A stretch of DNA of 64,000 bases from Candidatus Moraniibacteriota bacterium (GCA_963778555.1 CAVZUR010000002.1:37817-101816), one strand, 5' to 3'. Positions 6,324 to 52,197 are shown, numbered from the stretch's first letter. The notes: generated by a model not told the origin, from the sequence alone. Program-made: numbers and translations.

Positions 6324-6370
6324 GTCGCTGCAGCGGACAATGCGCTATAATGAGGCAGCAAGACAAAAAA

Positions 6371-7601
6371 ATGAAAAGATTTTTTTCGTATCTCTTTTTC
6401 CTCCTCCTGACAGCCGGACTGTTCATCGGGGTCTATTGGCTCAATTGGTTCCATCCCGCCATTAATCCGGGCCAGGAAGTGACCTTCGTTGCTGAACAGC
6501 CGTCGAATGAATCTGGTATTATCATCCGCGATGCTCCCGATCCCGAGGGACGCACGCCGGACAAGAATCCGCCCATTCTGGTCGAAGCAATCGCCTCCGG
6601 TTTGGATACGCCGTGGGATTTGGTTTTCACGTCGCCTTCCCGTATTCTCATCACGGAACGGCCGGGACAGATTCGCGTCCTAGAAAACGGCACTTTGCGC
6701 GAAACGCCGCTCCATGTTTTTACAGAAGTCGTAGAGAAAGGCGAGGATGGGTTGATGTCGATCGCAGTTGGTCCTGCATATTCGGAAAATCATTTCCTCT
6801 ACGCCGCGATCGCGTATGGCGAAGCGGATCGGCTCTGGCTGAAAGTCATGCGTTTCATCGATACCGGAAATGCGCTCACTGAACCGTTTACTGTGATTGA
6901 TCGTATCCCAGCCGCTCAGTTCCATGCTGGCTGCCGGATCGCGTTCGGTCCCGACGGGAAGCTTTATGTCACGACGGGTGACGCGACGGACAAGACTCTC
7001 GCTCAGGATCCGGCATCGCTTGCCGGAAAAATTCTCCGCCTCAATAAAGATGGGACGATACCTGACTGACAATCCCTTTGTCGGAAGTGCAGTCTGGTCA
7101 CTCGGCCATCGCAATCCGCAGGGGCTGGCCTGGCAGCCGGAAGCTGGGATTCTGTTTGAAACGGAACATGGTCCTTCGCTTTTCGACGGACCAGCGGGTG
7201 GAGATGAAGTAAATAGAATCGAGAAGGGTGGGAACTATGGTTGGCCCCTGGTTTCGCATGAAAACTCGCGCGAAGGCTTCGTTTCGCCACTGGTCGTCTT
7301 TACGCCGGCCGAAGCGCCCGGCTCGCTCATGATCTATTCTGGTCGGGTCTTTCCGGAGTGGCGGGGCAATCTGTTCTTTGGCGCGCTTAAAGGCGAAGGA
7401 CTCATGCGGATTCGACTGGAGGGGACTGATGCGAAAAAGGTGGCCGCATACGGTAAACTGGGCGAGGTCAAACTCGGCCGCATCCGGGCGGTAGTGGAAG
7501 GGCCGGACGGCAATATCTATTTCACGACGTCCAACCGTGATGGGCGCGGCCAGCCCGCGCCACTTGATGACCGCATCTTCCGCATCCGAGGCAAGGATTA
7601 G
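6371..7601 (+). CDS. PQQ-dependent soluble aldose sugar dehydrogenase (YliI/SGDH family), frameshifted (fragments 6350..7069 and 6897..7601)
   Basis: Six-bladed beta-propeller SGDH motifs are split over two frames. The reading frame breaks at a tandem CTGA CTGA at 7063-7070. Removing one copy restores '...DGTIPDNPFVG...'. Confidence 0.75.
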
Positions 7602-20283: not shown

Positions 20284-21508
20284 ATGCCGAAGTATTTGTA
20301 TACAGCGAGAAATATCTCGACGGGCGAGACGAAAGGCGGGGAGATCATCGGCAAGGATGAAAGCCATGTCGGTCAGGATCTCCGCGGTCAAGGGTATCTC
20401 GTCACATCCCTCAAGCTCATAGAAGAAGCGACGGAAGGCGTCCAGGTAAAGTTCCTTGACCGCTTCCGGTCGGTGCCATTGAAGGAAAAGATGATGTTTA
20501 CGCGAAACCTCGCGGTTATGACATCATCGGGTTTGACGATTTCACGCGCCATCCATAATCTCGCCCTGCAGACGAAAAACAAGCGCTTTCAGAAGATCCT
20601 GAACGACGTGCATGATGATGTCCAGGCAGGCAAGCAACTCTCTGAAGGTTTGGCCAAATACCCGAGCGTATTCAACGATCTGTTCGTCAACATGGTTTCG
20701 GTCGGGGAAGTCTCGGGAAATCTGGAGGAGGTGCTCGATATCCTCGCGCTTCAGCTTGAGAAGGAGCACGAACTCCTCTCCAAGGTGCGCGGAGCGCTGA
20801 TTTATCCAGCGGTCATCGTTGTCGCCATGATCGGCATCGCGACGCTGATGCTCACCTATATCCTGCCGAAGATTACGCAGACATTCGTCGATATGGACGT
20901 GAAGCTTCCCGCCACGACGCTCTTCATCATGGGGCTTTCAAGTTTCCTTATCACTCACTGGCTCTTGTCGCGTCCTGATCGTCGTCGGATCGATGGTGGC
21001 CGTCCGCGTCGCCGCCAAGACTGAAGCGGGCCGTTATTTTCTCCATTGGCTGGTGCTGCGGCTGCCGATCGTCGGCAATATCGTCATCAAAGTGAACTGC
21101 GCGCGTTTCGCCCGCATTTACAGCTCGCTCTTGAAGAGCGGGGTCTCGGTTATCAACGCGCTGACCATCGTTTCTCGGACTCTGGGCAATGTCTATTACA
21201 AGGAAGCCCTGATCAAAGGCGTGGAAGAGATTCAGAAAGGGACAGAGCTTTCCAAGATCATCGGACAATACCCCGTGATTTTCCCGATACTCGTGACCCA
21301 GATCATCCAGGTCGGCGAAGAGACCGGAAAGACAGAGAACGTCCTTCAGCGCTTGGCGGAGTTCTATGAGGAGGAGGTTTCTCAGATCACGAAGAATATG
21401 TCATCGATCATCGAGCCGATCCTGATGCTCCTCATCGGCAGCATGGTCGGTTTCATGGCTGTGGCCATGCTCCAGCCGATGTACAGCGTCCTGGAAAATA
21501 TCCAGTAA
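20284..21508 (+). CDS. pilC: type IV pilus assembly platform protein PilC / GspF family, frameshifted (fragments 20284..21024 and 20993..21508)
   Basis: Two T2SSF domains split across frames. The frame changes near 20965-20975: '...LITHWLL' is followed in another frame by 'VLIVVGSMVAVRVAAKTEAGRY...'. Confidence 0.85.
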
Positions 21509-25055: not shown

Positions 25056-26150
25056 ATGAGTTTTTTTCGGAAAAAGATTTTTGATCTCTTCCCTCAGCCC
25101 TTCGGCCTGGATCTGTCCGATCTTTCGGTCAAAGCGGTCTGGCTGGAGCGCGAGGGGAAGGAGGACATCGTCTCCAGTTTCGGATCGGTTCCGATCGCCA
25201 TCGGCAGCATCGTAGACGGGGATATCATAAAGGAGGACGTGGTCGTGCAGGCCATCAAAGACCTGCTCGAGAAGACGAAACCGCGGCCGGTCAAGACACG
25301 CAAGGTCATCTGTTCATTGCCGGAAACCAAAGCGTTTCTCCGAGTCGTCTCATTGCCCGAAATGCCGAGCGACGAAGTGAGGGAGGCGATCAAATGGGAA
25401 ATCGAGGCCAATATCCCGCTCACGCTCGACCAAGTGTACTACGATTATCAGATTCTCGATAAGAAACTCGTCAAGGAAAAAAACAAATTGAGCGTGCTAG
25501 TGGTGGCGGTGGCGCGGAGCATGGTCGACCAGATTCACGCGGTCTTGGAGAAGTCCGGACTGGAAGTGGTCGGGCTGGAGACGGAGTCGATCGCCCAGGC
25601 GCGCAGTCTGCTCATTGAGAAGGACGAGGATAAGACGCGGATGATCGTGGATATCGGCGATCGGCGGACCAGCTTTCTGGTCGCAATCGGCCATACGCCC
25701 TGTTTCACATCGAGCGTTCCGCTTTCCTCCCAGATGATTTCCGATGCTATTTCGAAGGAGATGCGCATTTCATTCGAAGAAGCCGAGGCCATGAAGATCA
25801 AGTACGGACTGGGATCGCTCGCCATGCAAAGCCCGCTCTTCAAGGCCGCCCAGCCGATTCTCGAGAATCTGGCCGTCGAGATCGAACGCTCGACGAATTT
25901 TTATCTCAGCAATCTCGGCTATTCGAACGCGATCGATAACATCGTGCTCTGCGGCGGCGGATCGAATATGAAAGGGCTCCTGCCGTATATGACGAAACGC
26001 CTGAACCAATCGGTCGAGTTCGGCAACCCCTGGGTCAATATCCAGCTCGGCCGGACACTCCCACCAATCGATCGGGGACATTCGGTCCAATACTCAACGG
26101 CCATCGGCCTCGCGCTGCGCGGCCTGGATGAATATGAGGATCTTACTTAA
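25056..26150 (+). CDS. pilM: type IV pilus assembly protein PilM (actin-like ATPase)
   Basis: 364 aa with an actin/FtsA-like fold, directly followed by the pilN and pilO homologues. Confidence 0.85.
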   Translation: MSFFRKKIFDLFPQPFGLDLSDLSVKAVWLEREGKEDIVSSFGSVPIAIGSIVDGDIIKEDVVVQAIKDLLEKTKPRPVKTRKVICSLPETKAFLRVVSLPEMPSDEVREAIKWEIEANIPLTLDQVYYDYQILDKKLVKEKNKLSVLVVAVARSMVDQIHAVLEKSGLEVVGLETESIAQARSLLIEKDEDKTRMIVDIGDRRTSFLVAIGHTPCFTSSVPLSSQMISDAISKEMRISFEEAEAMKIKYGLGSLAMQSPLFKAAQPILENLAVEIERSTNFYLSNLGYSNAIDNIVLCGGGSNMKGLLPYMTKRLNQSVEFGNPWVNIQLGRTLPPIDRGHSVQYSTAIGLALRGLDEYEDLT

Positions 26151-26692
26151 TATCTTGCCGGAAGAGAAACGGAACGGAATCGTTCGACGATTCCGCTCCC
26201 GGTTTTTCCTATGGCAGACAGTACTTATACTCCTCCTCGAGGTGTACTATGTGGCTGTTCTCGGGGGAATCTATATGATACTGAATTACCAAACTGAGGT
26301 GGGAACGGAATCACTCATTACTTTTGACCAGTACAGCGAAGAAGCGAAAAAACTCAGCGAATATCAGGAAGAATTCAAGCAAATCAATGCTCAGACGGAA
26401 AAAGTCAATCGCTATCAGCGTGCTCACTTTCATTGGAGCGCGCTCTTTGTCGCTGCTTCAGGAGCTCGCTCCCAAGGGAGTCGTCATCGTCGAGCTCCTG
26501 ACGAAGGATTATACGGTTTCGATTTCCGGCCAGGCAGGGACACGCGACCAATTTCTCGAATTCGAATCGGCCCTGAAAGGAGCGGAATGTGTCAGTGATG
26601 TCCGGGTCCCGATTTCGAACCTGTTTTCTCAAAAAGAAATTGAATTTCAAGTGGATTTCAAGCTGAAGCGGGAATGTCTGCTCCATCTATAA
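26128..26692 (+). CDS. pilN: PilN-like pilus assembly protein, frameshifted (fragments 26128..26598 and 26324..26692)
   Basis: The N-terminal TM and coiled coil lie in frame 1. The C-terminal 'SLLQELAPKGVVIVELLTKDYTVSISGQA...' lies in the +1 frame. The switch is near 26420-26460. Confidence 0.65.
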
Positions 26693-26696
26693 CACT

Positions 26697-27440
26697 ATGA
26701 CCAGCCCGAATATCGCACAACTGAAGCCATGGCTCATGCAGAGCGCACTGATCGTCATGATTGGACTGGCGGGCTGGTTCGTCATCCGGCCGTTTCTCGT
26801 GACCATCAAAGGGAAAATGGATGATATTCAACGACTTTCTGTGACGCGGGAGCACAGGGAGAAGCAGCTCGAAAAACTTCCCGATCTGGAGACCCAGCAC
26901 GCTTTGATTGAAGCGGAAGGAGATCAAATCGACATCATCCTGACCAAGGAGCGTCTCGTCGAATTCATCGAGACGCTTGAGCGGTTGGCATTGGTTGATG
27001 CTGTTGAGATTGAGATTGAATCGCGCGATAATGCTTTCCTCGAAAGCAAAGTGACCGCTGTGGAGAAGACAACAAAGAAGGAGGGCGCGAAGCCAGCCGC
27101 TACGGACAATCTGGATGAGCCCGTCGAGACCCCGAAACGCGGGGCGAAGGAAACCGGTATTATCACGGAACTGCCGCTCAAGACATTCCTGAAGCTCACC
27201 ATCACGGTCACGGGAGAATATGCCTCCGTCGTCCGATACCTCCATCACCTCGAAACGCTGCCTTATGCGCTCGATGTCATCGCTCTGAATATCAAAGAGC
27301 ACCCAGAGACTGGGGAGGAATTATCGTCCGAATCTGGTGTATTCAACCCGTTTGGAGAAGCAGTGCCAGAGGTGACGCGGGTTGCTCCCAAAGGGAGGCT
27401 GGACGCCACCTTCGAAACGGTCGTGTATATAAAAGAATAA
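26697..27440 (+). CDS. pilO: PilO-like pilus assembly protein
   Basis: N-terminal TM, a coiled coil and a C-terminal beta domain, positioned after pilM and pilN. Confidence 0.6.
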   Translation: MTSPNIAQLKPWLMQSALIVMIGLAGWFVIRPFLVTIKGKMDDIQRLSVTREHREKQLEKLPDLETQHALIEAEGDQIDIILTKERLVEFIETLERLALVDAVEIEIESRDNAFLESKVTAVEKTTKKEGAKPAATDNLDEPVETPKRGAKETGIITELPLKTFLKLTITVTGEYASVVRYLHHLETLPYALDVIALNIKEHPETGEELSSESGVFNPFGEAVPEVTRVAPKGRLDATFETVVYIKE

Positions 27441-27443
27441 CCT

Positions 27444-27770
27444 ATGAAATTCTCCCTGAAGCAGATCTCATTTGACTCGGTCAGGCGCCGGAGTCTTTAC
27501 TTCTGGATCCGGCATTACAAATCACTGTTTGCGATTCTCTTTTTTGTGCTGTCGGGATTCGCTGGCTATCAGTGGCACCGTGACCTCTATCGTTATACCT
27601 GGTCAGTAGAGGAACGAAAGGAGTATCTTGAGACGATTGCCAAAGAAACCGTCTTTCAAGAAAAGAAATTTCAAGATGCATTGGGACAATTACAACAGAC
27701 CCGCGAAATACATCAGTCGGATTTTAATCCAGGGAGAGATTTGTTTGAAGGCGTTCGGAAGAAGGAATAG
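27444..27770 (+). CDS. hypothetical membrane-anchored protein (possible PilP-like accessory)
   Basis: 108 aa with a single TM, last gene of the pil block. The PilP-like function is guessed from position only. Confidence 0.4.
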   Translation: MKFSLKQISFDSVRRRSLYFWIRHYKSLFAILFFVLSGFAGYQWHRDLYRYTWSVEERKEYLETIAKETVFQEKKFQDALGQLQQTREIHQSDFNPGRDLFEGVRKKE

Positions 27771-34139: not shown

Positions 34140-34320
34140 ACGGTTGACGAAGACTTCCGAGATTGCAGATAGGAACATATCCTGACCCTTGACAGAGAGT
34201 TGCATCTTTGAAACGATCTGATATACTGGAATTGCTGAACTCCTTCCACCCCCCTCACCATCTATTGTCACACCGACGCCCCAATACTTGGTCCTGTGGA
34301 AGGACCAGCACTCGCGAGCA

Positions 34321-34359
34321 GAGGGATTCAACAACGTTGAACCCTCGCTTTTCTTTATT
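34321..34359 (+). terminator. rho-independent terminator (first of a tandem pair; second at 34392-34422)
   Basis: GAGGGATTCAAC/GTTGAACCCTC stem followed by GCTTTTCTTTATT. The second hairpin AACGCTC/GAGCGTT is followed by TTTTTGGCTTTTT. Confidence 0.6.
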
Positions 34360-34475
34360 AGGGAGTAATTTCTGAGAATATTCGTGAAAGTAACGCTCAA
34401 TGAGAGCGTTTTTTGGCTTTTTAAAAGGGTATTTGCGTATATTTGGAAAGTGTCATAAAATGGGTAGTAAGAACA

Positions 34476-34500
34476 GTGAAGTGGTGAAATGTGGTGAATT
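34476..34500 (+). promoter_or_regulatory. candidate MraZ-box direct repeats (GTGAA-GTGGTGAAAT-GTGGTGAATT) upstream of mraZ
   Basis: Three GTG(G/A)-containing pentamers repeat at 10-bp phase about 85 nt upstream of the mraZ start codon. Confidence 0.45.
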
Positions 34501-34585
34501 TCACGGAAACACGTTTACGGTTCGGTTTTGCCACGCTCTGTCGGGCACGCACTGGCGGCTCGTTGGGGTTTAAGTCTGCGCGCTT

Positions 34586-40674: not shown

Positions 40675-41651
40675 ATGAAAATTTTAGTTACGGGAGGAGC
40701 TGGTTTTATAGGCTCCAATTTCATCCGTCATATTCTGGAAACGCGGCCGGAGGCCGAGGTCGTGAATCTCGACGCCCTCACCTACGCGGGGAATCTGGAG
40801 AATCTTGCAACGCTTCGGACGGAGTCGCGGTACCGGTTCGTGAAGGGGGATATCGCGGACGCGGCGACGGTGGACCCGCTGGTCGCCGAAACCGACGCGA
40901 TCGTCCATTTTGCCGCCGAGAGCCATGTCGACCGTTCTATTCTCTCGCCTGACGCATTTGTCCGGACCAACATTCTCGGCACCTTCACGCTGCTCGAAGC
41001 GGCGCGGAAGCATACCAAGCGCTTCCATCATGTTTCGACGGATGAAGTCTTCGGATCGCTTACGGCCACTGACCCAGCGTTTCACGAAGCGACACCGTAT
41101 GACCCACGCAGTCCGTACAGCGCGACCAAAGCCGGATCCGACCATCTCGTCCGGGCGTATTTCCATACCTATGGCTTGCCGGTGACCATCTCGAATTGTT
41201 CGAACAACTATGGCCCGTATCATTTCCCCGAGAAGCTCATCCCGCTCGCAATCACGAATCTCCTTGAGGGAATGAAAGTGCCGGTGTATGGTGACGGAGC
41301 CCAAAGACGCGACTGGTTGTATGTCGAGGACCACTGCCGAGCCATCGCGCTTATCCTCGAACAGGGCAAACTCGGCGAAACGTACTGCATCGGTGGGGAT
41401 GGCGAGCGCGAAAACATCTGGATTGTGAAAAAACTCCTCGAACTCCTGGGCAAAGACGAGCGCAGATCGAATACGTGACCGACCGCCCGGGTCATGACCG
41501 CCGCTACGCGATCGACTACTCGAAAATTAAGTCCGAACTCGGCTGGCAGCCAACGGTGAGTCTGGAGGAAGGTCTGGCTAAAACTGTCGAATGGTTCAAG
41601 GCCAATGAGAGTTGGTGGAAAAATGCTTGCCAGAAACGCGACCACATATAG
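40675..41651 (+). CDS. rfbB: dTDP-glucose 4,6-dehydratase, frameshifted near 41455-41468 (fragment 40675..41478 + C-terminal part in -1 frame to 41651)
   Basis: '[12 protein letters not shown]' and 'YSATKAGSD'. The C-terminal '[29 protein letters not shown]...VEWF' is encoded out of frame. Confidence 0.85.
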
Positions 41652-41830
41652 TGCGATCGTGGGCTGGTGAAGAGCGAGGAGTATCAGAAATACTACGCTG
41701 AGCAGTATGGGCAATAGTAGTCACTATAGCAGTTTGGTGGTTGAGTATGTGGGAACTATGCCCGAATGTATTTATATAGTACAGTTGAATCTGTCCATGT
41801 TCAAAGTAAATCAATATTGTATATAGTTAT

Positions 41831-42505
41831 ATGGCAGATCGGATTCTATTCCTGATTTCAGGGGTCGTCATGATTGGAGGGGCTTATCTGTCTATGTTTT
41901 TTGGTGTTACTGGATATATGGCCTTCTTTTTATTTTGTATCCCCATTATGTCTACTGTACTCAGGCCAATTGTGTCTGCACATGGGGTGGTCAACCAAGA
42001 AAGTAAGCTTGCCTTTCCCGTGAAATTAGTCAGTTATACAATGCTATCCTATGGATTACTTACTATTCTATTATTGATTACAGACTCTATTTTTGTTGGT
42101 TCAATCCCGTTAGTATATCTGTTTCTAAGCATATGTTTGTATCCAATTGTGCATTTCACCTATGTTGTTTTGCCTAAAAGCCTGACGCGAGAGAGGGGAC
42201 TGATTGTTCCATTTTATCCAAGCGGAGTAACTTTGGTATTGGGATACATATTTGTGTACATGTATCATACAGCAGACCTGTCCCCTATCTTAATACTGCC
42301 CATAATAATCTGTTGTATTACCAGTCCTTTTCTGTACAAACGGAGCTTTGAAGTTATGCTTCGTCAGGGTGGGTCAACAGCATATACTAAAAAACAATAC
42401 CTCATACAACTCTTATTGGTTTTTGTAATAGGATTTATTGTTTTCGTATCCGGATACTTGGGTATGGGGCTTTCGAGTATAGAATACGGATTGCCTGGCC
42501 TATGA
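41831..42505 (+). CDS. hypothetical polytopic membrane protein in low-GC insert (possible polysaccharide-related, e.g. Wzy/acyltransferase-like; unassigned)
   Basis: 224 aa with about 7 TM segments. GC is roughly 38% against about 60% for the flanks. The Wzy/acyltransferase guess rests on location inside the rfb cluster only. Confidence 0.5.
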   Translation: MADRILFLISGVVMIGGAYLSMFFGVTGYMAFFLFCIPIMSTVLRPIVSAHGVVNQESKLAFPVKLVSYTMLSYGLLTILLLITDSIFVGSIPLVYLFLSICLYPIVHFTYVVLPKSLTRERGLIVPFYPSGVTLVLGYIFVYMYHTADLSPILILPIIICCITSPFLYKRSFEVMLRQGGSTAYTKKQYLIQLLLVFVIGFIVFVSGYLGMGLSSIEYGLPGL

Positions 42506-42633
42506 TTTCACACTCGGAGATCTGAAAGCGGCTCTCTTTGAACATATTTTAGGTATGTAGCCTAGCTTAGGTTAACATGCATTGAAGTTATGCCTGTGAC
42601 GCTGGCTAGTCGTTTTGCTATAATGAAGGCACT

Positions 42634-43527
42634 ATGGAAGGAACACAGTCAAAACAACGGAAGAAAGTCCTGATTCTGGGGTCAAAAGGGACTTTGGGCC
42701 AGGAACTGGTCCGGGAGTTCCGCATGGCGGGCTATGAGTTGGCCGCCTGGGATATCGGCGATATCGATCTAGCGGAGACTGAACCGTCGATTGCCAAAAT
42801 TGAGGCTTTCGCCCCCGAAATCATCATCAATGCGGCGGCGTACAATGCGGTCGACGCCTGCGAGACCGATGACGAAGAGTATCGCAAAGCGATGATTCTG
42901 AACCGTGATGTCCCGGGCTATCTCGCGCAGTATGCGGCAGGGAAGGGCATCCTCTTCGTGCATTACTCGACGGACTATGTGTTCGACGGCGTGGCGGACG
43001 GCGGGTATGCCGAAGATGCGACGCCGCATCCGATCTCGCGCTACGGCGCTTCGAAATACGAAGGCGAGAAAGTGATGCTTGCCGCCGGCGGCAAGGGCTA
43101 TCTCATCCGGCTCTCGAAACTTTTTGGTGAGCCCGCGACGTCGAAATTGGGGAAGCGCAGTTTTTTCGAAATCATGCTCGCCAAAGGCAAGACCGAAACG
43201 CAGGTAGATGTCGTGGATGATGAAAGGAGCTGCTTCACGTACGCTCCTGATCTCGCGCTCGCGACGCGCCAACTGATCGAATCCGCGTCCGCACCGGGCA
43301 TCTACCATCTCCCTAATGAAGGTAGTGCCACCTGGTTCCAAGCAGCACTCGAGCTGTTTCGCAAGGCGGAACTCCGGGTGGAAGTCGTGCCGATCGCGAG
43401 CCAGGGATTCCTCCGACCTGCCCGGCGGCCGCGCTCTTCCGTTCTCCTCAACACGAAGCGTCCCCGGCAGCGTCCCTATACCGAAGCCCTGACCGAATTT
43501 CTCGAAAATTTTCTGCCCACGCTATGA
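42634..43527 (+). CDS. rfbD: dTDP-4-dehydrorhamnose reductase
   Basis: 'VLILGSKGTLGQEL' and 'YGASKYEGE'. A TGcTATAAT extended -10 lies upstream. Confidence 0.85.
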   Translation: MEGTQSKQRKKVLILGSKGTLGQELVREFRMAGYELAAWDIGDIDLAETEPSIAKIEAFAPEIIINAAAYNAVDACETDDEEYRKAMILNRDVPGYLAQYAAGKGILFVHYSTDYVFDGVADGGYAEDATPHPISRYGASKYEGEKVMLAAGGKGYLIRLSKLFGEPATSKLGKRSFFEIMLAKGKTETQVDVVDDERSCFTYAPDLALATRQLIESASAPGIYHLPNEGSATWFQAALELFRKAELRVEVVPIASQGFLRPARRPRSSVLLNTKRPRQRPYTEALTEFLENFLPTL

Positions 43528-44759
43528 AACATCTCGCCCAGGCCGATCCTGCAGTCGCTCGGATGATTCAAGGCGAGCTTCGGCGCGAAGAAGACGGACT
43601 CGAGATGATCGCGTCCGAGAATTACGTTTCACGGCCGGTACTCGAAGCGCTGGGGAGCGTCTTCACGAACAAATATTCCGAGGGCTATCCGGGCCGGCGC
43701 TACTATGGCGGGCAGGAATTTACCGATGCGGTCGAGTCGTTGGCTATCGAACGGGCGAAGAAGCTCTTTGGCGCCGAACACGCGAATGTCCAGCCGCATT
43801 CCGGGGCGCCCGCGAACATCGCGGTCTATGCCGCGCTTCTCGAGCCGGGGGATACGATACTTGGCATGGATTTGTCTCATGGCGGACACCTGACGCACGG
43901 CCATCCGGTAACCTTTATGCCGAAAATCTATCGCTTTGTCCGATACAAAACCGAACCGGATGGCAGCATTGATTATAAAAAGCTCGCCGCACTGGCAAAA
44001 AAAGTAAAACCCAAGTTGCTCCTGGCAGGTTTCTCATCATACACGCGGCAGCTCGACTATGTGAAGTTCCAAAACATCGCCCGGGCGGTAAAAGCGTATT
44101 CGATGATGGACATGGCGCATATCGCCGGCTTGGTCGCGGCGAAAGTCGTCCCAAACCCCGTCCCGTATTTTGATGTGGTGACTGCGACAACGCACAAAAC
44201 GCTGAGGGGTCCACGCGGCGGGCTCATCCTCTGCCGTGCAGCGGTGGCCCAACGGATCGACAAAGCAGTCTTTCCGGGTCTTCAGGGCGGGCCGCACATG
44301 CACGTGATCGCGGCCAAAGCGGTCGCGTTCGGCGAGGCGCTCCGGCCGGACTTCAAGCGCTACGGAAAACAGATCCTGAAGAACGCTAAGGCGCTCGAGA
44401 AGGGATTACGGGCCGCTGGTTTCAACATCCTCTTCGGTAAGACGGAGAATCACATGGTCATGGTCGATACGGTCGCGAGCCATGGTGTTTCGGGAAAGAC
44501 GGGCGAGCAGCTCCTCGATGCAGCGGGAATCACGGTGAATAAAAATGTCATCCCGGACGATCCGCGCGGCCCGATGGACCCGTCGGGTCTGCGCATCGGA
44601 GTACCGGCCGTGACGACCCGGGGGATGAAAGAAGCAGAGCTGAAGGTGATTGCATCCTGGATCGATGCCGCGCTCCGTTCCCGGGGCGATGCAGCGGTGC
44701 TCGCGAAAATCCGAAAGGAAGTGAAACGGCTGTGCAAAAAATTTCCGGTCTATCGATAA
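43524..44759 (+). CDS. glyA: serine hydroxymethyltransferase
   Basis: 'LEMIASENYVS' and 'TTHKTLRGPRGG'. Confidence 0.9.
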   Translation: MKHLAQADPAVARMIQGELRREEDGLEMIASENYVSRPVLEALGSVFTNKYSEGYPGRRYYGGQEFTDAVESLAIERAKKLFGAEHANVQPHSGAPANIAVYAALLEPGDTILGMDLSHGGHLTHGHPVTFMPKIYRFVRYKTEPDGSIDYKKLAALAKKVKPKLLLAGFSSYTRQLDYVKFQNIARAVKAYSMMDMAHIAGLVAAKVVPNPVPYFDVVTATTHKTLRGPRGGLILCRAAVAQRIDKAVFPGLQGGPHMHVIAAKAVAFGEALRPDFKRYGKQILKNAKALEKGLRAAGFNILFGKTENHMVMVDTVASHGVSGKTGEQLLDAAGITVNKNVIPDDPRGPMDPSGLRIGVPAVTTRGMKEAELKVIASWIDAALRSRGDAAVLAKIRKEVKRLCKKFPVYR

Positions 44760-46552: not shown

Positions 46553-47278
46553 ATGTACTGGGCGTATCTCATCCTCTTCGTCGCCATGATCGTCACGCCC
46601 GAGGTGGTCCGTGATGGCGTGCTTTTTTTTAGCGAGGAGGACCTTGAGTCCCTCCTCGTCTTCTGTTTCGGGATGGTCGGGCTCCTACTCTATCTCGGCA
46701 AGGAGTCGGCCTTTCTCCGGGCGGTGCGGGAAAAACTCTCGCTGCAGCAGGAAACGAACCAGATTCGGAAAGACCTCTCGCAATCCTATTCGTACATCGG
46801 CGAGATGAATCGGCGCATCGATATTGTGAAGAACATGGTGGTGTCGCTCCCACAGTCCACGACAACGGTTTTTTCCAAAAGCGGCCAGGATCTGTATGAG
46901 CCGATCATCGATGCCACTGCGCTGCTCGCTCAATCAGACTGCGTCGCGCTGTACTTTGTCGCGACGGCGGATGGAACGATCGCCGAGCAGTATGTCGTCG
47001 GAGAAGGCGAACATCGGGCGCTGCTCCAGACCTTAGCGGGCCGGCATTTGCTCGACACCAAGAAATATATCTGGGAAGAAGGAAAACTCACCTTTGTCAG
47101 ATCGCCTGAAGAGGCACTCGGCATGTCGGCCTTCATCGTGTTCCATCAGGTGAAGAATCGTCTGGAGGAAATGGGTATTTTCCAGATTCTCGCCGCGCAA
47201 GCGCTTTTTGTCTTTGCGACGAATCGTCAGGCGCCGATGCAGCACGGGAGTGCCAGCAATCCGCGGTCCCATCTATGA
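46553..47278 (+). CDS. hypothetical protein (N-terminal TM + cytoplasmic domain)
   Basis: 241 aa, N-terminal TM, no recognised family; lies between galU and the GT4 glycosyltransferase. Confidence 0.45.
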   Translation: MYWAYLILFVAMIVTPEVVRDGVLFFSEEDLESLLVFCFGMVGLLLYLGKESAFLRAVREKLSLQQETNQIRKDLSQSYSYIGEMNRRIDIVKNMVVSLPQSTTTVFSKSGQDLYEPIIDATALLAQSDCVALYFVATADGTIAEQYVVGEGEHRALLQTLAGRHLLDTKKYIWEEGKLTFVRSPEEALGMSAFIVFHQVKNRLEEMGIFQILAAQALFVFATNRQAPMQHGSASNPRSHL

Positions 47279-50541: not shown

Positions 50542-52197
50542 ATGCTGCGAATGATAGTGCGTCTTTGGCAATGGAGCGAGCGCCCAATCGAGACACTCGG
50601 GGGCGCTGCTTTTATCATTGCCCTCGCCGGCGTCGTAAGTCGGATTCTCGGTTTCATCCGTGATCGCCTGCTCGCTTCATCCTTTGGGGCAGGTGATATT
50701 CTCGATGCCTACTACGCTGCTTTCCGGTTGCCTGATCTCGTCTACGGTTTTCTCGTTCTCGGCGCCCTATCGGCGGCGTTCATCCCAGTCTTTACGGAGT
50801 TTGTCGCGCGTGATGAGCGGGAAAAAGCCTGGCGTCTCACACAAGGGGCGTTGCAGTGGCTCGTGGTCATTTTAGGCGGCGCGGCGCTCTTGGGCATCCT
50901 CTTCGCTGGTCCGATCGCGACCTGGATCGCTCCTGGGTTCTCACCGGAAAAGCAGTCGCTGGTGGCTCTCTTCACACGGATTATGCTCGTGTCACCGATC
51001 TTTCTTGCCGTGTCAGCTGTCATCGGCGGCGTCCTGGTTTCATTCAAGCAGTTTCTGGCGTACTCCTTCGCGCCGGTCTTCTACAATCTGGGTATCATCA
51101 TCGGCATTCTCTTCCTCTACCCAACGCTTGGGCCGGCGGGTCTGGCGGCAGGCGTCGTGCTCGGATCATTGTTTCATGCCTGGGTTCAATTCCCGGCTTT
51201 TCGCCGGGCCGGATATCGCTTTTCTCTCCTTTCGTTCTCGCGAAGCGCGCGTGATCCTGCACTTCGGAAAGTCGCCCGCCTCATGATTCCGCGGTCGCTC
51301 GCCATGGCGGTCAATCAGATCAGCCTTATCATCGTGACGGTTTTCTCCTCGACACTCGTTTCCGGGAGTCTGGCCGCTTTCACGCTTGCAATCAATATCC
51401 AAAGCGTTCCGCTCGGATTGTTCGGGATCGCTTTTTCACTCGCGGCCTTTCCGATACTCGCGACGCTCGTAGCCAAACATGAGGATGCGGAATTTTTTGC
51501 CGTGTTCGCGCGGACCGCACGGCGCATCCTCTATTTCGTGCTCCCGCTCTCGCTCTTCTTCATCATCTTTCGGGCAGAAATTGTCCGCGTCATTCTCGGC
51601 ACTGGAGCGTTCAACTGGGAAGATACCATCCTGACCTTCACCGTACTCGGATGGCTCTCCCTTTCTCTCTTCGCCCAAAGCCTCATCCCGCTGTTCGTCC
51701 GCGCCTTCTTCGCGCTCCAGGATACCAAGACGCCGCTCTTTGCCGCACTGTTCTCGGAAATCGTCCATCTTTCACTCATCCCGATACTGTTGCCGCGCTT
51801 CGCGGTGGCAGGCATCGCAATTGCGTTCTCAGTCGGTGCGGTAGTGAACATCCTCATCCTGTACGCCACGTTGCGGCGACGGGTTGCCGTCTGGAAGGAT
51901 TGGGAGATCCTCTCAGGCATCGGCCGGATTATCGGTATCACACTGATTGCCGGAATCATTGCGCAGTTTTCGAAAAGTATCTTTGTGTTGACCATAGACC
52001 GGCTCGACACGTTTCTCGAGGTGGCGATGAAACTCGGAGTGGGCGCAGTGATCGGCGTAGCGGCGTACATCCTACTTTCGTCCCTGTTCGGATTGCCCGA
52101 GTATCTTCAGGTAAAGCGATTCATCTGGTGTCGGCTGCTCCGGCAACCTGAGACCGTCGTATTGGCTGAGGATCATCCTGAGAAAGGAGACTGGTGA
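50542..52197 (+). CDS. murJ: lipid II flippase MurJ (MviN)
   Basis: 551 aa, 14 TM, MOP-superfamily N-terminus 'SRILGFIRDRLLASSFGAGDILDAYYAAFRLPD'. Confidence 0.85.
   Translation: MLRMIVRLWQWSERPIETLGGAAFIIALAGVVSRILGFIRDRLLASSFGAGDILDAYYAAFRLPDLVYGFLVLGALSAAFIPVFTEFVARDEREKAWRLTQGALQWLVVILGGAALLGILFAGPIATWIAPGFSPEKQSLVALFTRIMLVSPIFLAVSAVIGGVLVSFKQFLAYSFAPVFYNLGIIIGILFLYPTLGPAGLAAGVVLGSLFHAWVQFPAFRRAGYRFSLLSFSRSARDPALRKVARLMIPRSLAMAVNQISLIIVTVFSSTLVSGSLAAFTLAINIQSVPLGLFGIAFSLAAFPILATLVAKHEDAEFFAVFARTARRILYFVLPLSLFFIIFRAEIVRVILGTGAFNWEDTILTFTVLGWLSLSLFAQSLIPLFVRAFFALQDTKTPLFAALFSEIVHLSLIPILLPRFAVAGIAIAFSVGAVVNILILYATLRRRVAVWKDWEILSGIGRIIGITLIAGIIAQFSKSIFVLTIDRLDTFLEVAMKLGVGAVIGVAAYILLSSLFGLPEYLQVKRFIWCRLLRQPETVVLAEDHPEKGDW

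Follow-up and report, generated by a model that had tools for sequence, protein, structure and literature searches.

A seven-helix orphan membrane protein gene, probably a recent foreign insertion, in a variable slot of the conserved cell-envelope block of Candidatus Moraniibacteriota

Introduction

Between rmlB and rmlD, two genes of the dTDP-rhamnose cluster, the genome of a Candidatus Moraniibacteriota bacterium carries a sharply AT-rich segment with a gene for a polytopic membrane protein, here called ORF224. The wzx and wzy genes are classic cases of low GC, and the first-pass annotation of this locus took the segment for a horizontally acquired part of a serotype-type rfb locus and its product for a relative of Wzy, Wzx, the membrane acyltransferases or GtrA. 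Two questions follow: whether the segment is indeed foreign, and whether its gene has anything to do with glycan processing. Nothing was found in the literature on Moranbacteria and rhamnose, or on CPR bacteria, dTDP-rhamnose and the cell wall. The analysis below covers a stretch of 64,000 nucleotides (the window), to whose first letter all positions refer; the principal features of the junction, and the state of the same junction in relatives, are collected in Table 1.

Table 1. Features of the rmlB-rmlD junction in the window, and the rmlB-rmlD slot in related loci
Feature	Position or slot length	Strand	Details
rmlB (dTDP-glucose 4,6-dehydratase), interrupted frame	40675..41717	+	Pfam GDP_Man_Dehyd, Epimerase; three-frame translation
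Left AT-rich spacer	41718..41830	+	GC 0.33; probably belongs to the insert
ORF224, 224-aa 7-TM integral membrane protein	41831..42505	+	GC 0.39, GC3 0.37
Right spacer	42506..42613	+	GC 0.42 over 42506-42633; without terminator-like site
TTTGCTATAATGA, native extended -10 box of rmlD	42614..42626	+	7 nt upstream of ATG
rmlD (dTDP-4-dehydrorhamnose reductase), intact	42634..43527	+	Pfam RmlD_sub_bind E = 2.7e-68
Slot in L007, L008, L010, L012, L013, L025	~0-40 bp		empty
Slot in L064	126 bp		empty; RmlB 81%, RmlD 73%
Slot in L165	139 bp		empty; RmlD 79%
Slot in L164	~0.4 kb		MazG
Slot in L003	1.0 kb		MBL-fold hydrolase
Slot in L166, L167	~1.4 kb		peptidase S51 + MBL
Slot in L006	2.6 kb		6-TM protein (197 aa) + MazG + MBL
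Slot in L005	3.2 kb		DUF5680 + NUDIX + S51 + MBL

A conserved block with a variable slot

The gene order murF-KH-rmlC-rmlB-slot-rmlD-glyA-rmlA-galU-x241 is kept across dozens of Moraniibacteriota genomes, and in the window mraZ-rsmH-ftsI lies before it and GT4-DUF4012-murJ-lepA after it. The rmlD stop overlaps the glyA start. RmlD is 73-79% identical to its nearest relatives, and it is these RmlD relatives that place the host in Candidatus Moraniibacteriota, within the candidate phyla radiation (CPR). Judged by gene order, this is a conserved block of cell-envelope genes rather than a variable cluster of the O-antigen type. The serotype-type rfb locus that had been proposed does not fit this arrangement, nor does it fit the non-glycan cargo that the slot holds elsewhere.

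What varies is the junction between rmlB and rmlD. The comparison of its spacing among related genomes, which the first-pass annotation had called for, gave lengths from about 0 bp to 3.2 kb, never with ORF224 (Table 1). The slot of L004 is also occupied by other cargo, and more distant relatives carry DUF2207, DUF2000, GNAT or FAD oxidoreductase genes at this position. No glycan polymerase, flippase or membrane acyltransferase is found among the slot cargo of the relatives, most of which is host-like in composition, with a few ORFs (for example in L005) somewhat below the locus average. On this comparison of loci, the rmlB-rmlD slot is naturally variable in Moraniibacteriota. Because the cargo in relatives is unrelated to glycan processing, location in the slot is a poor guide to function; the junction is a general variable slot in a conserved envelope block, and its cargo here is an orphan gene.

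Several further features of the block deserve mention in their own right. It contains at least three variable slots, namely rmlB-rmlD, rmlD-glyA and, in L014, L018 and L019, rmlC-rmlB. In the rmlD-glyA slot of L014, L016, L018 and L019 sits another seven-TM protein inserted in the same block, of the DUF475/TerC kind; these proteins are 310-322 aa long, have a host-like GC3 of 0.70-0.79 and match Pfam DUF475/TerC at E = 4.7e-43, whereas ORF224 has no such match. The recurrent cargo of the rmlB-rmlD slot comprises MazG, MBL-fold hydrolase, peptidase S51, NUDIX and DUF5680, and the presence of MazG and NUDIX beside a dTTP-consuming pathway might not be accidental. The serine hydroxymethyltransferase gene glyA (43524-44759) lies between rmlD and rmlA, a phylum-wide arrangement; it is an unusual companion of rhamnose genes. 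Finally, x241 (46553-47278) encodes a protein of 241 aa that has two TM segments at its N terminus and matches nothing in Pfam. It is always situated between galU and GT4, orthologues occur in most Moraniibacteriota loci, and it makes a more promising candidate than ORF224 for a still uncharacterised membrane component in the glycan pathway.

Composition and boundaries of the AT-rich segment

From about 41700 to about 42600 the GC content, taken in 300-nt windows, is 0.37-0.40, and the segment is the GC minimum of the whole 64-kb window (z = -5.3 in 300-nt windows, z = -7.2 in 900-nt windows). Over 41718-42633 it amounts to 0.386, against 0.553 +/- 0.023 for the remainder, and every other 1-kb bin lies at 0.50-0.61. 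The figure of about 38% originally given for the segment therefore stands, while that of about 60% for its surroundings was too high, the flanking genes having a GC of 0.53-0.59. Of the two AT-rich spacers described at the same time, only the left one is confirmed: the 27 other intergenic spacers of the window that measure 50 nt or more all have a higher GC (0.39-0.58), and that of the right spacer falls inside this native range.

The left edge also had to be moved. The start first proposed, 41652, immediately follows an in-frame TAG that belongs to a 42-nt insertion in rmlB; AT-rich DNA begins only at about 41718, and the sequence up to 41717 is rmlB-homologous and of native GC. The ends of the insert are bounded within 41718 to about 42613. 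Mapping them more closely against the spacers of L064 and L165, the nearest relatives with an empty slot, failed: alignment is restricted to the rmlB end and the TTTGCTATAATGA box, and the left spacer resembles nothing in these spacers.

Both insert junctions are spanned by an independently assembled Logan contig, L001 (run ERR11593397, 2138 bp), which corresponds to window positions 41570-43707 with 3 SNPs and extends from the 3' end of rmlB through the complete insert and rmlD into the start of glyA. Since L001 spans both junctions, the AT-rich segment is not an assembly chimera.

A seven-helix membrane protein

ORF224 is the one long ORF of the AT-rich segment; there is no second ORF, and hence no integrase gene. 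When the 916-nt segment was shuffled 5000 times, the longest ORF had a mean of 78 codons and a maximum of 189, against the observed 231 from stop to stop; as none of the 5000 shuffles reached the observed length, a chance ORF is excluded. The product had been described as a 224-aa protein with about seven TM segments, and so it is: seven hydrophobic segments are seen in the Kyte-Doolittle profile and seven helices in the AF2 model, with TM helices predicted at approximately residues 5-23, 26-48, 66-87, 95-113, 124-146, 150-169 and 192-214. Charged residues are concentrated in the loops 45-65, 114-123 and 169-190, from which an N-in/C-out topology follows by the positive-inside rule. By the same rule the longest loops, of about 20 residues, are cytoplasmic. 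An internal repeat of hairpins (three pairs of TM segments plus one) was considered and rejected, as it amounted to a weak secondary BLAST HSP and hhalign of the three hairpins gave probabilities of at most 0.3.

When 1.84 billion cluster representatives were searched exhaustively with phmmer, a single relative emerged, P0002 (241 aa, 35% identity, E = 7.6e-26). Its alignment with ORF224 runs from end to end, with 75 of 227 aligned residues identical, and the two have in common the motifs FGVTGY, CIPI, LPKSLT, PSG..GYI and P.LY. This end-to-end alignment with shared motifs supports the ATG at 41831 as the start of ORF224, and it bears the mark of long-term purifying selection. Many prolines, glycines and aromatic residues in the helices are conserved between the two. 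The only conserved acidic residues are E57 and E218, both situated in loops outside the predicted TM segments. No histidine or aspartate is conserved in the alignment, H51, H108 and H146 of ORF224 being all unconserved, and the pair shares no His, Asp or Arg pattern. ORF224 encodes a genuine, conserved, N-in/C-out seven-helix membrane protein.

The topology of ORF224, the lack of conserved catalytic residues and helices rich in conserved prolines, glycines and aromatics suggest a non-enzymatic accessory membrane protein, a reading to which we would give about an even chance. Such a protein might be a small permease or channel, or else an immunity- or exclusion-type factor; motif matches were absent, and the structure model has a pLDDT of 44.7.

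An exceptionally rare family

Beyond P0002, searches for relatives came back empty. A word-index search of 5.8 billion proteins retrieved ORF224 itself only, whether the query was the sequence or a profile. In Pfam-A, hmmscan gave no family at E <= 1 for ORF224 and none at E <= 10 for P0002; NCBIfam gave none at E <= 10 for ORF224; and PHROGs and PADLOC gave none at E <= 1 for either protein, so that no phage or defence membrane protein was matched there. The one match in a profile search of the PDB, a ribose regulator (E = 0.93), is noise, as are the GPCRs and designed helical proteins returned by Foldseek for the AF2 model against the PDB (E >= 0.79, TM <= 0.36); that model was built on the two-sequence alignment of ORF224 and P0002 and has a pTM of 0.30. 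No relatives of ORF224 were found in IMG/VR, the INPHARED phages or the PLSDB plasmids. Within the block, the profile of ORF224 and P0002, run against six-frame ORFs of 162 fetched loci, recovered only the window itself, L001 and L002, and kinship with the 6-TM protein in the slot of L006 was rejected at BLASTP E > 5. In collections derived from some 15 billion predicted proteins, the ORF224 family has only two detectable members.

The second of these, P0002, sits on a 927-bp Logan contig (L002, from SRR34294545). Its ORF has a GC of 0.35 and a GC3 of 0.29, and it adjoins a 143-nt downstream flank of GC 0.60. Among the fetched loci the flanks of L002 matched nothing by blastn or tblastx, and the contig contains no tRNA and no significant Rfam match, a snoRNA match at E = 0.73 being sub-threshold. 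An rmlB tail upstream of P0002 was also considered, for L002 starts with GTGAAGAG, like the rmlB tail; an 8-mer match of this kind is expected by chance, and the idea was dropped.

Two things are unusual about the event: how extremely rare the family is, and that each of its two known copies is a compositional alien in its host. A bolder proposal, which we regard as improbable, is that ORF224 and P0002 represent a previously undescribed seven-helix family that travels as minimal, promoter-proximal, very-low-GC single-gene cassettes into higher-GC genomes and may give episymbiotic CPR bacteria a trait related to their surface or to interaction with hosts or phages. If that were true, the alien composition of both copies would reflect ongoing mobility from an unsampled low-GC reservoir. 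At a minimum, a very rare seven-TM family is hereby flagged, and it could turn informative with more members or with a longer P0002 contig.

Is ORF224 a glycan-processing protein?

A rival reading is that ORF224 is a serotype-specific glycan-processing protein, Wzy-, Wzx-, O-acyltransferase- or GtrA-like, that is exchanged horizontally and acts on a rhamnose-containing cell-wall polymer. It draws on the position of the gene between rmlB and rmlD, with GT4, DUF4012 and MurJ genes about 5-9 kb downstream, on the polytopic topology of the product and on its low GC. Against it stand the empty Pfam and NCBIfam searches reported above, which included the profile search against Wzy_C, acyltransferase_3 and GtrA that the first-pass annotation had proposed, and a size and TM count unlike those of all four families.

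Wzy and Wzx proteins as a rule have 10-14 TM segments and exceed 350 aa. More specifically, Wzy has at least 10 TM segments in about 350-450 aa and a large extracytoplasmic loop with conserved basic residues, while the Wzx/MOP flippases have 12-14 TM segments in more than 400 aa. Members of Acyl_transf_3 have about 10 TM segments in more than 330 aa and a conserved catalytic histidine in TM1, and GtrA is a protein of 4 TM segments and about 120-140 aa. ORF224, with 224 aa and 7 TM segments, fits none of these descriptions. Wzy (Wzy_C PF04932, EpsG) is rejected for want of a profile match, for this size and topology and for the loops of about 20 residues placed in the cytoplasm; Wzx/MOP (Polysacc_synt PF01943, MurJ) and GtrA (PF04138) are rejected on the missing Pfam match together with length and TM count; and Acyl_transf_3 (PF01757) is rejected on the missing Pfam match and the three histidines that P0002 does not conserve. 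The genuine MOP member of the window lies at 50542-52197 and is a protein of 551 aa and 13 TM segments that matches MurJ at E = 3.1e-83 (GC3 0.67).

The surroundings argue in the same direction. The block is conserved housekeeping synteny and not a variable O-antigen locus, and the slot elsewhere carries MazG, MBL-fold hydrolase, S51, NUDIX, DUF5680, DUF2207, DUF2000, GNAT or FAD oxidoreductase genes. The missing His, Asp or Arg pattern shared with P0002 likewise weighs against it. Taken with the clues of position, topology and GC, this leaves the glycan-processing reading a long shot. ORF224 would have no part in dTDP-rhamnose synthesis and, by size, TM count and profile comparison, is no homologue of Wzy, Wzx, AT3 or GtrA.

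The likeness to known systems is nevertheless instructive. The low-GC wzx, wzy and O-acetyltransferase genes of enterobacterial O-antigen (rfb) clusters are also AT-rich, rich in rare codons, polytopic in product, situated beside rml genes and absent from relatives. ORF224 differs from them in having no sequence or profile similarity and in being much smaller than proteins of 10-14 TM segments and more than 330 aa, and its host locus differs from rfb clusters in being a conserved CPR envelope block whose slot elsewhere holds non-glycan cargo. GtrA resembles ORF224 as a small integral membrane protein able to ride with sugar-modification genes, but the ORF224 segment contains no partner gene of the GtrB or GtrC type, and the TM count and length of GtrA differ. 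A low-GC membrane gene beside rml genes is not automatically a serotype-determining Wzy, Wzx or acyltransferase gene.

Foreign origin of the segment

The horizontal acquisition that had been suspected is, by contrast with the glycan assignment, well borne out by third-position composition, by codon choice and by the absence of the gene from every relative examined. The GC3 of ORF224 compares with 0.62-0.74 in 11 neighbouring genes and with 0.63 +/- 0.066 for 68 non-overlapping ORFs of the window, the next lowest of which has 0.48. Membrane proteins as such do not deviate in this way: the native polytopic proteins, namely a 12-TM FtsX-like protein (GC3 0.63), the 13-TM MurJ and a 5-TM protein (0.58), carry host GC3, and the bias of ORF224 is thus not a membrane-protein effect. 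Codon usage, another check that had been suggested, shows a preference that is inverted relative to host genes. Among isoleucine codons the fraction of ATA is 0.33 in ORF224 and 0.06 in host genes, and that of ATC 0.17 and 0.69; among leucine codons TTA accounts for 0.20 against 0.02 and CTC for 0.09 against 0.47; and the glycine codon GGC accounts for 0.05 against 0.44.

The counter-sign would have been the same gene at similar GC in relatives, and the gene is present in no relative examined; its absence from them favours acquisition. We therefore consider it quite probable that a recent insertion of foreign DNA placed a single gene in the variable rmlB-rmlD slot, that this gene encodes an orphan seven-TM protein other than a glycan-processing one, and that the native rmlD promoter was left intact. 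Such an event would have been a lineage-specific horizontal insertion of about 0.8-0.9 kb of AT-rich DNA, its target being the intergenic slot of the conserved cell-envelope block of Candidatus Moraniibacteriota. The word recent refers only to the lack of amelioration, for the closest RmlD in the collections searched is 79% identical. No sibling strain was found: the best RmlD identity was 75% among GTDB representatives, 57% in JGI metagenomes and 79% in the 5.8-billion protein set, the window's own RmlD aside.

In kind, this is an ordinary gene-acquisition islet. Like the single-ORFan genomic islets known from hypervariable slots, it combines a sharp composition break, a single gene, one lineage and a variable slot; both deviating composition and codon usage and absence at the orthologous site are found. 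It differs from other islets in having no integrase, tRNA or repeat signature, and in the unusual rarity of its family. No hallmarks of mobility were seen: direct and inverted repeats flanking the insert do not exceed chance matches, the insert segment has no Rfam or tRNA match, no tRNA occurs in the 64-kb window, and no Rfam family reaches the gathering threshold anywhere in it.

Could the gene be ancestral, lost from all sampled relatives, with its low GC a family-specific constraint? Such an intrinsic bias is conceivable, given that the sole homologue, P0002, is low in GC as well and lies beside a flank of much higher GC. Yet the shift in ORF224 affects GC3 and synonymous codon choice, beyond amino-acid content; native polytopic proteins have host GC3; the left spacer is abnormally AT-rich too; and many independent losses would be needed across a conserved block. 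The ancestral reading is accordingly very unlikely. That the segment is an artefact, be it an assembly chimera or a spurious reading frame in AT-rich sequence, is scarcely credible even for a metagenome-assembled genome whose window contains 3 frameshifted genes and is thus of imperfect assembly quality, given the near-identical contig L001, a homologue as significant as P0002 and an ORF longer than in all 5000 shuffles.

The rmlD promoter box and expression

The insert lies entirely before the rmlD promoter box. A TGcTATAAT box, which the first-pass annotation had taken for the insert's own promoter for rmlD, is indeed present at 42617-42624, and TTTGCTATAATGA scores as an extended -10 promoter. 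It does not belong to the insert: in L064 and L165, whose slots are empty, the same box is found at the identical distance of 7 nt from the rmlD ATG, and it recurs in L003, L004, L005, L006, L164 and L166, in some of them with one or two substitutions. By this comparison, TTTGCTATAATGA is the ancestral rmlD promoter box, outside the insert, and the insertion left it intact downstream. Because the box is intact, rmlD-glyA-rmlA-galU are probably insulated from the insert, and probably unaffected in their expression.

Transcription of ORF224 itself would probably come from rmlC-rmlB by read-through, or start at AT-rich promoter-like sites a short way upstream; the left spacer contains promoter-like hexamers, TTCAAA-16-TATAGT, at 41800-41827. 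After the gene there is no terminator-like site. Like nearly all of the host genes checked, ORF224 is not preceded by a Shine-Dalgarno motif, and its translation probably proceeds without one, as appears to be the case for most genes here. The clade-wide box 7 nt before the rmlD ATG, the missing Shine-Dalgarno motifs and the TATAAT-like boxes that several other genes have within about 5-15 nt of the start codon together suggest leaderless or very short-leader mRNAs.

An interrupted rmlB upstream of the insert

Alignment of the 3' end of rmlB to four intact relatives uncovered two lesions. One nucleotide is lacking between 41460 and 41461, so that the frame changes and the ORF stops at 41478. 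Farther downstream, the insertion of 42 nt mentioned above is in frame, occupies 41625-41666 and contains the TAG at 41649-41651; the remaining stretch, 41652-41717, is a relic of the ancestral RmlB C-terminal tail (VKSEEYQKYYAEQYGQ and stop), again of native GC. The 42-nt insertion is reproduced in L001. The 1-nt deletion is seen in the window assembly only, Logan contigs stopping at 40814 and 41570, on either side of it.

The two lesions would differ in consequence. The 42-nt insertion need not by itself inactivate RmlB, because the RmlB match ends at about residue 315-320 in many Moraniibacteriota, whereas the 1-nt deletion, if real, would be inactivating. There is no second copy of rmlB in the 64-kb window, and no record of a truncated RmlB product was found. 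For the annotation, the interrupted rmlB joins the native rmlD promoter box and the adjusted insert boundaries as a correction, of modest practical value.

Other features of the window

Two further genes are split. The glucose/sorbosone dehydrogenase (GSDH) gene at 6350-7601 is divided into two overlapping ORFs, which match Pfam profile positions 1-160 and 157-329, with a frameshift near 7055-7065 in a non-homopolymer context (cctgactgacaat). A pilC-type gene at 20284-21508, with two T2SSF domains, is divided into ORFs of 246 aa and 171 aa by a frameshift near 20960. The three split genes in 64 kb, rmlB, GSDH and pilC, reflect either assembly indel errors or gene decay.

The second most atypical stretch of the window is 26128-27770, in which the ORFs 26128-26598 and 27444-27770 have a GC of 0.45-0.48 and a GC3 of 0.48-0.51; these two and the ORF between them, 26697-27440, have no Pfam match. 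Lastly, the non-coding stretch 34140-34585 (446 nt, GC 0.46, with a local 300-nt minimum of 0.427) precedes mraZ and heads the block of division and cell-wall genes.
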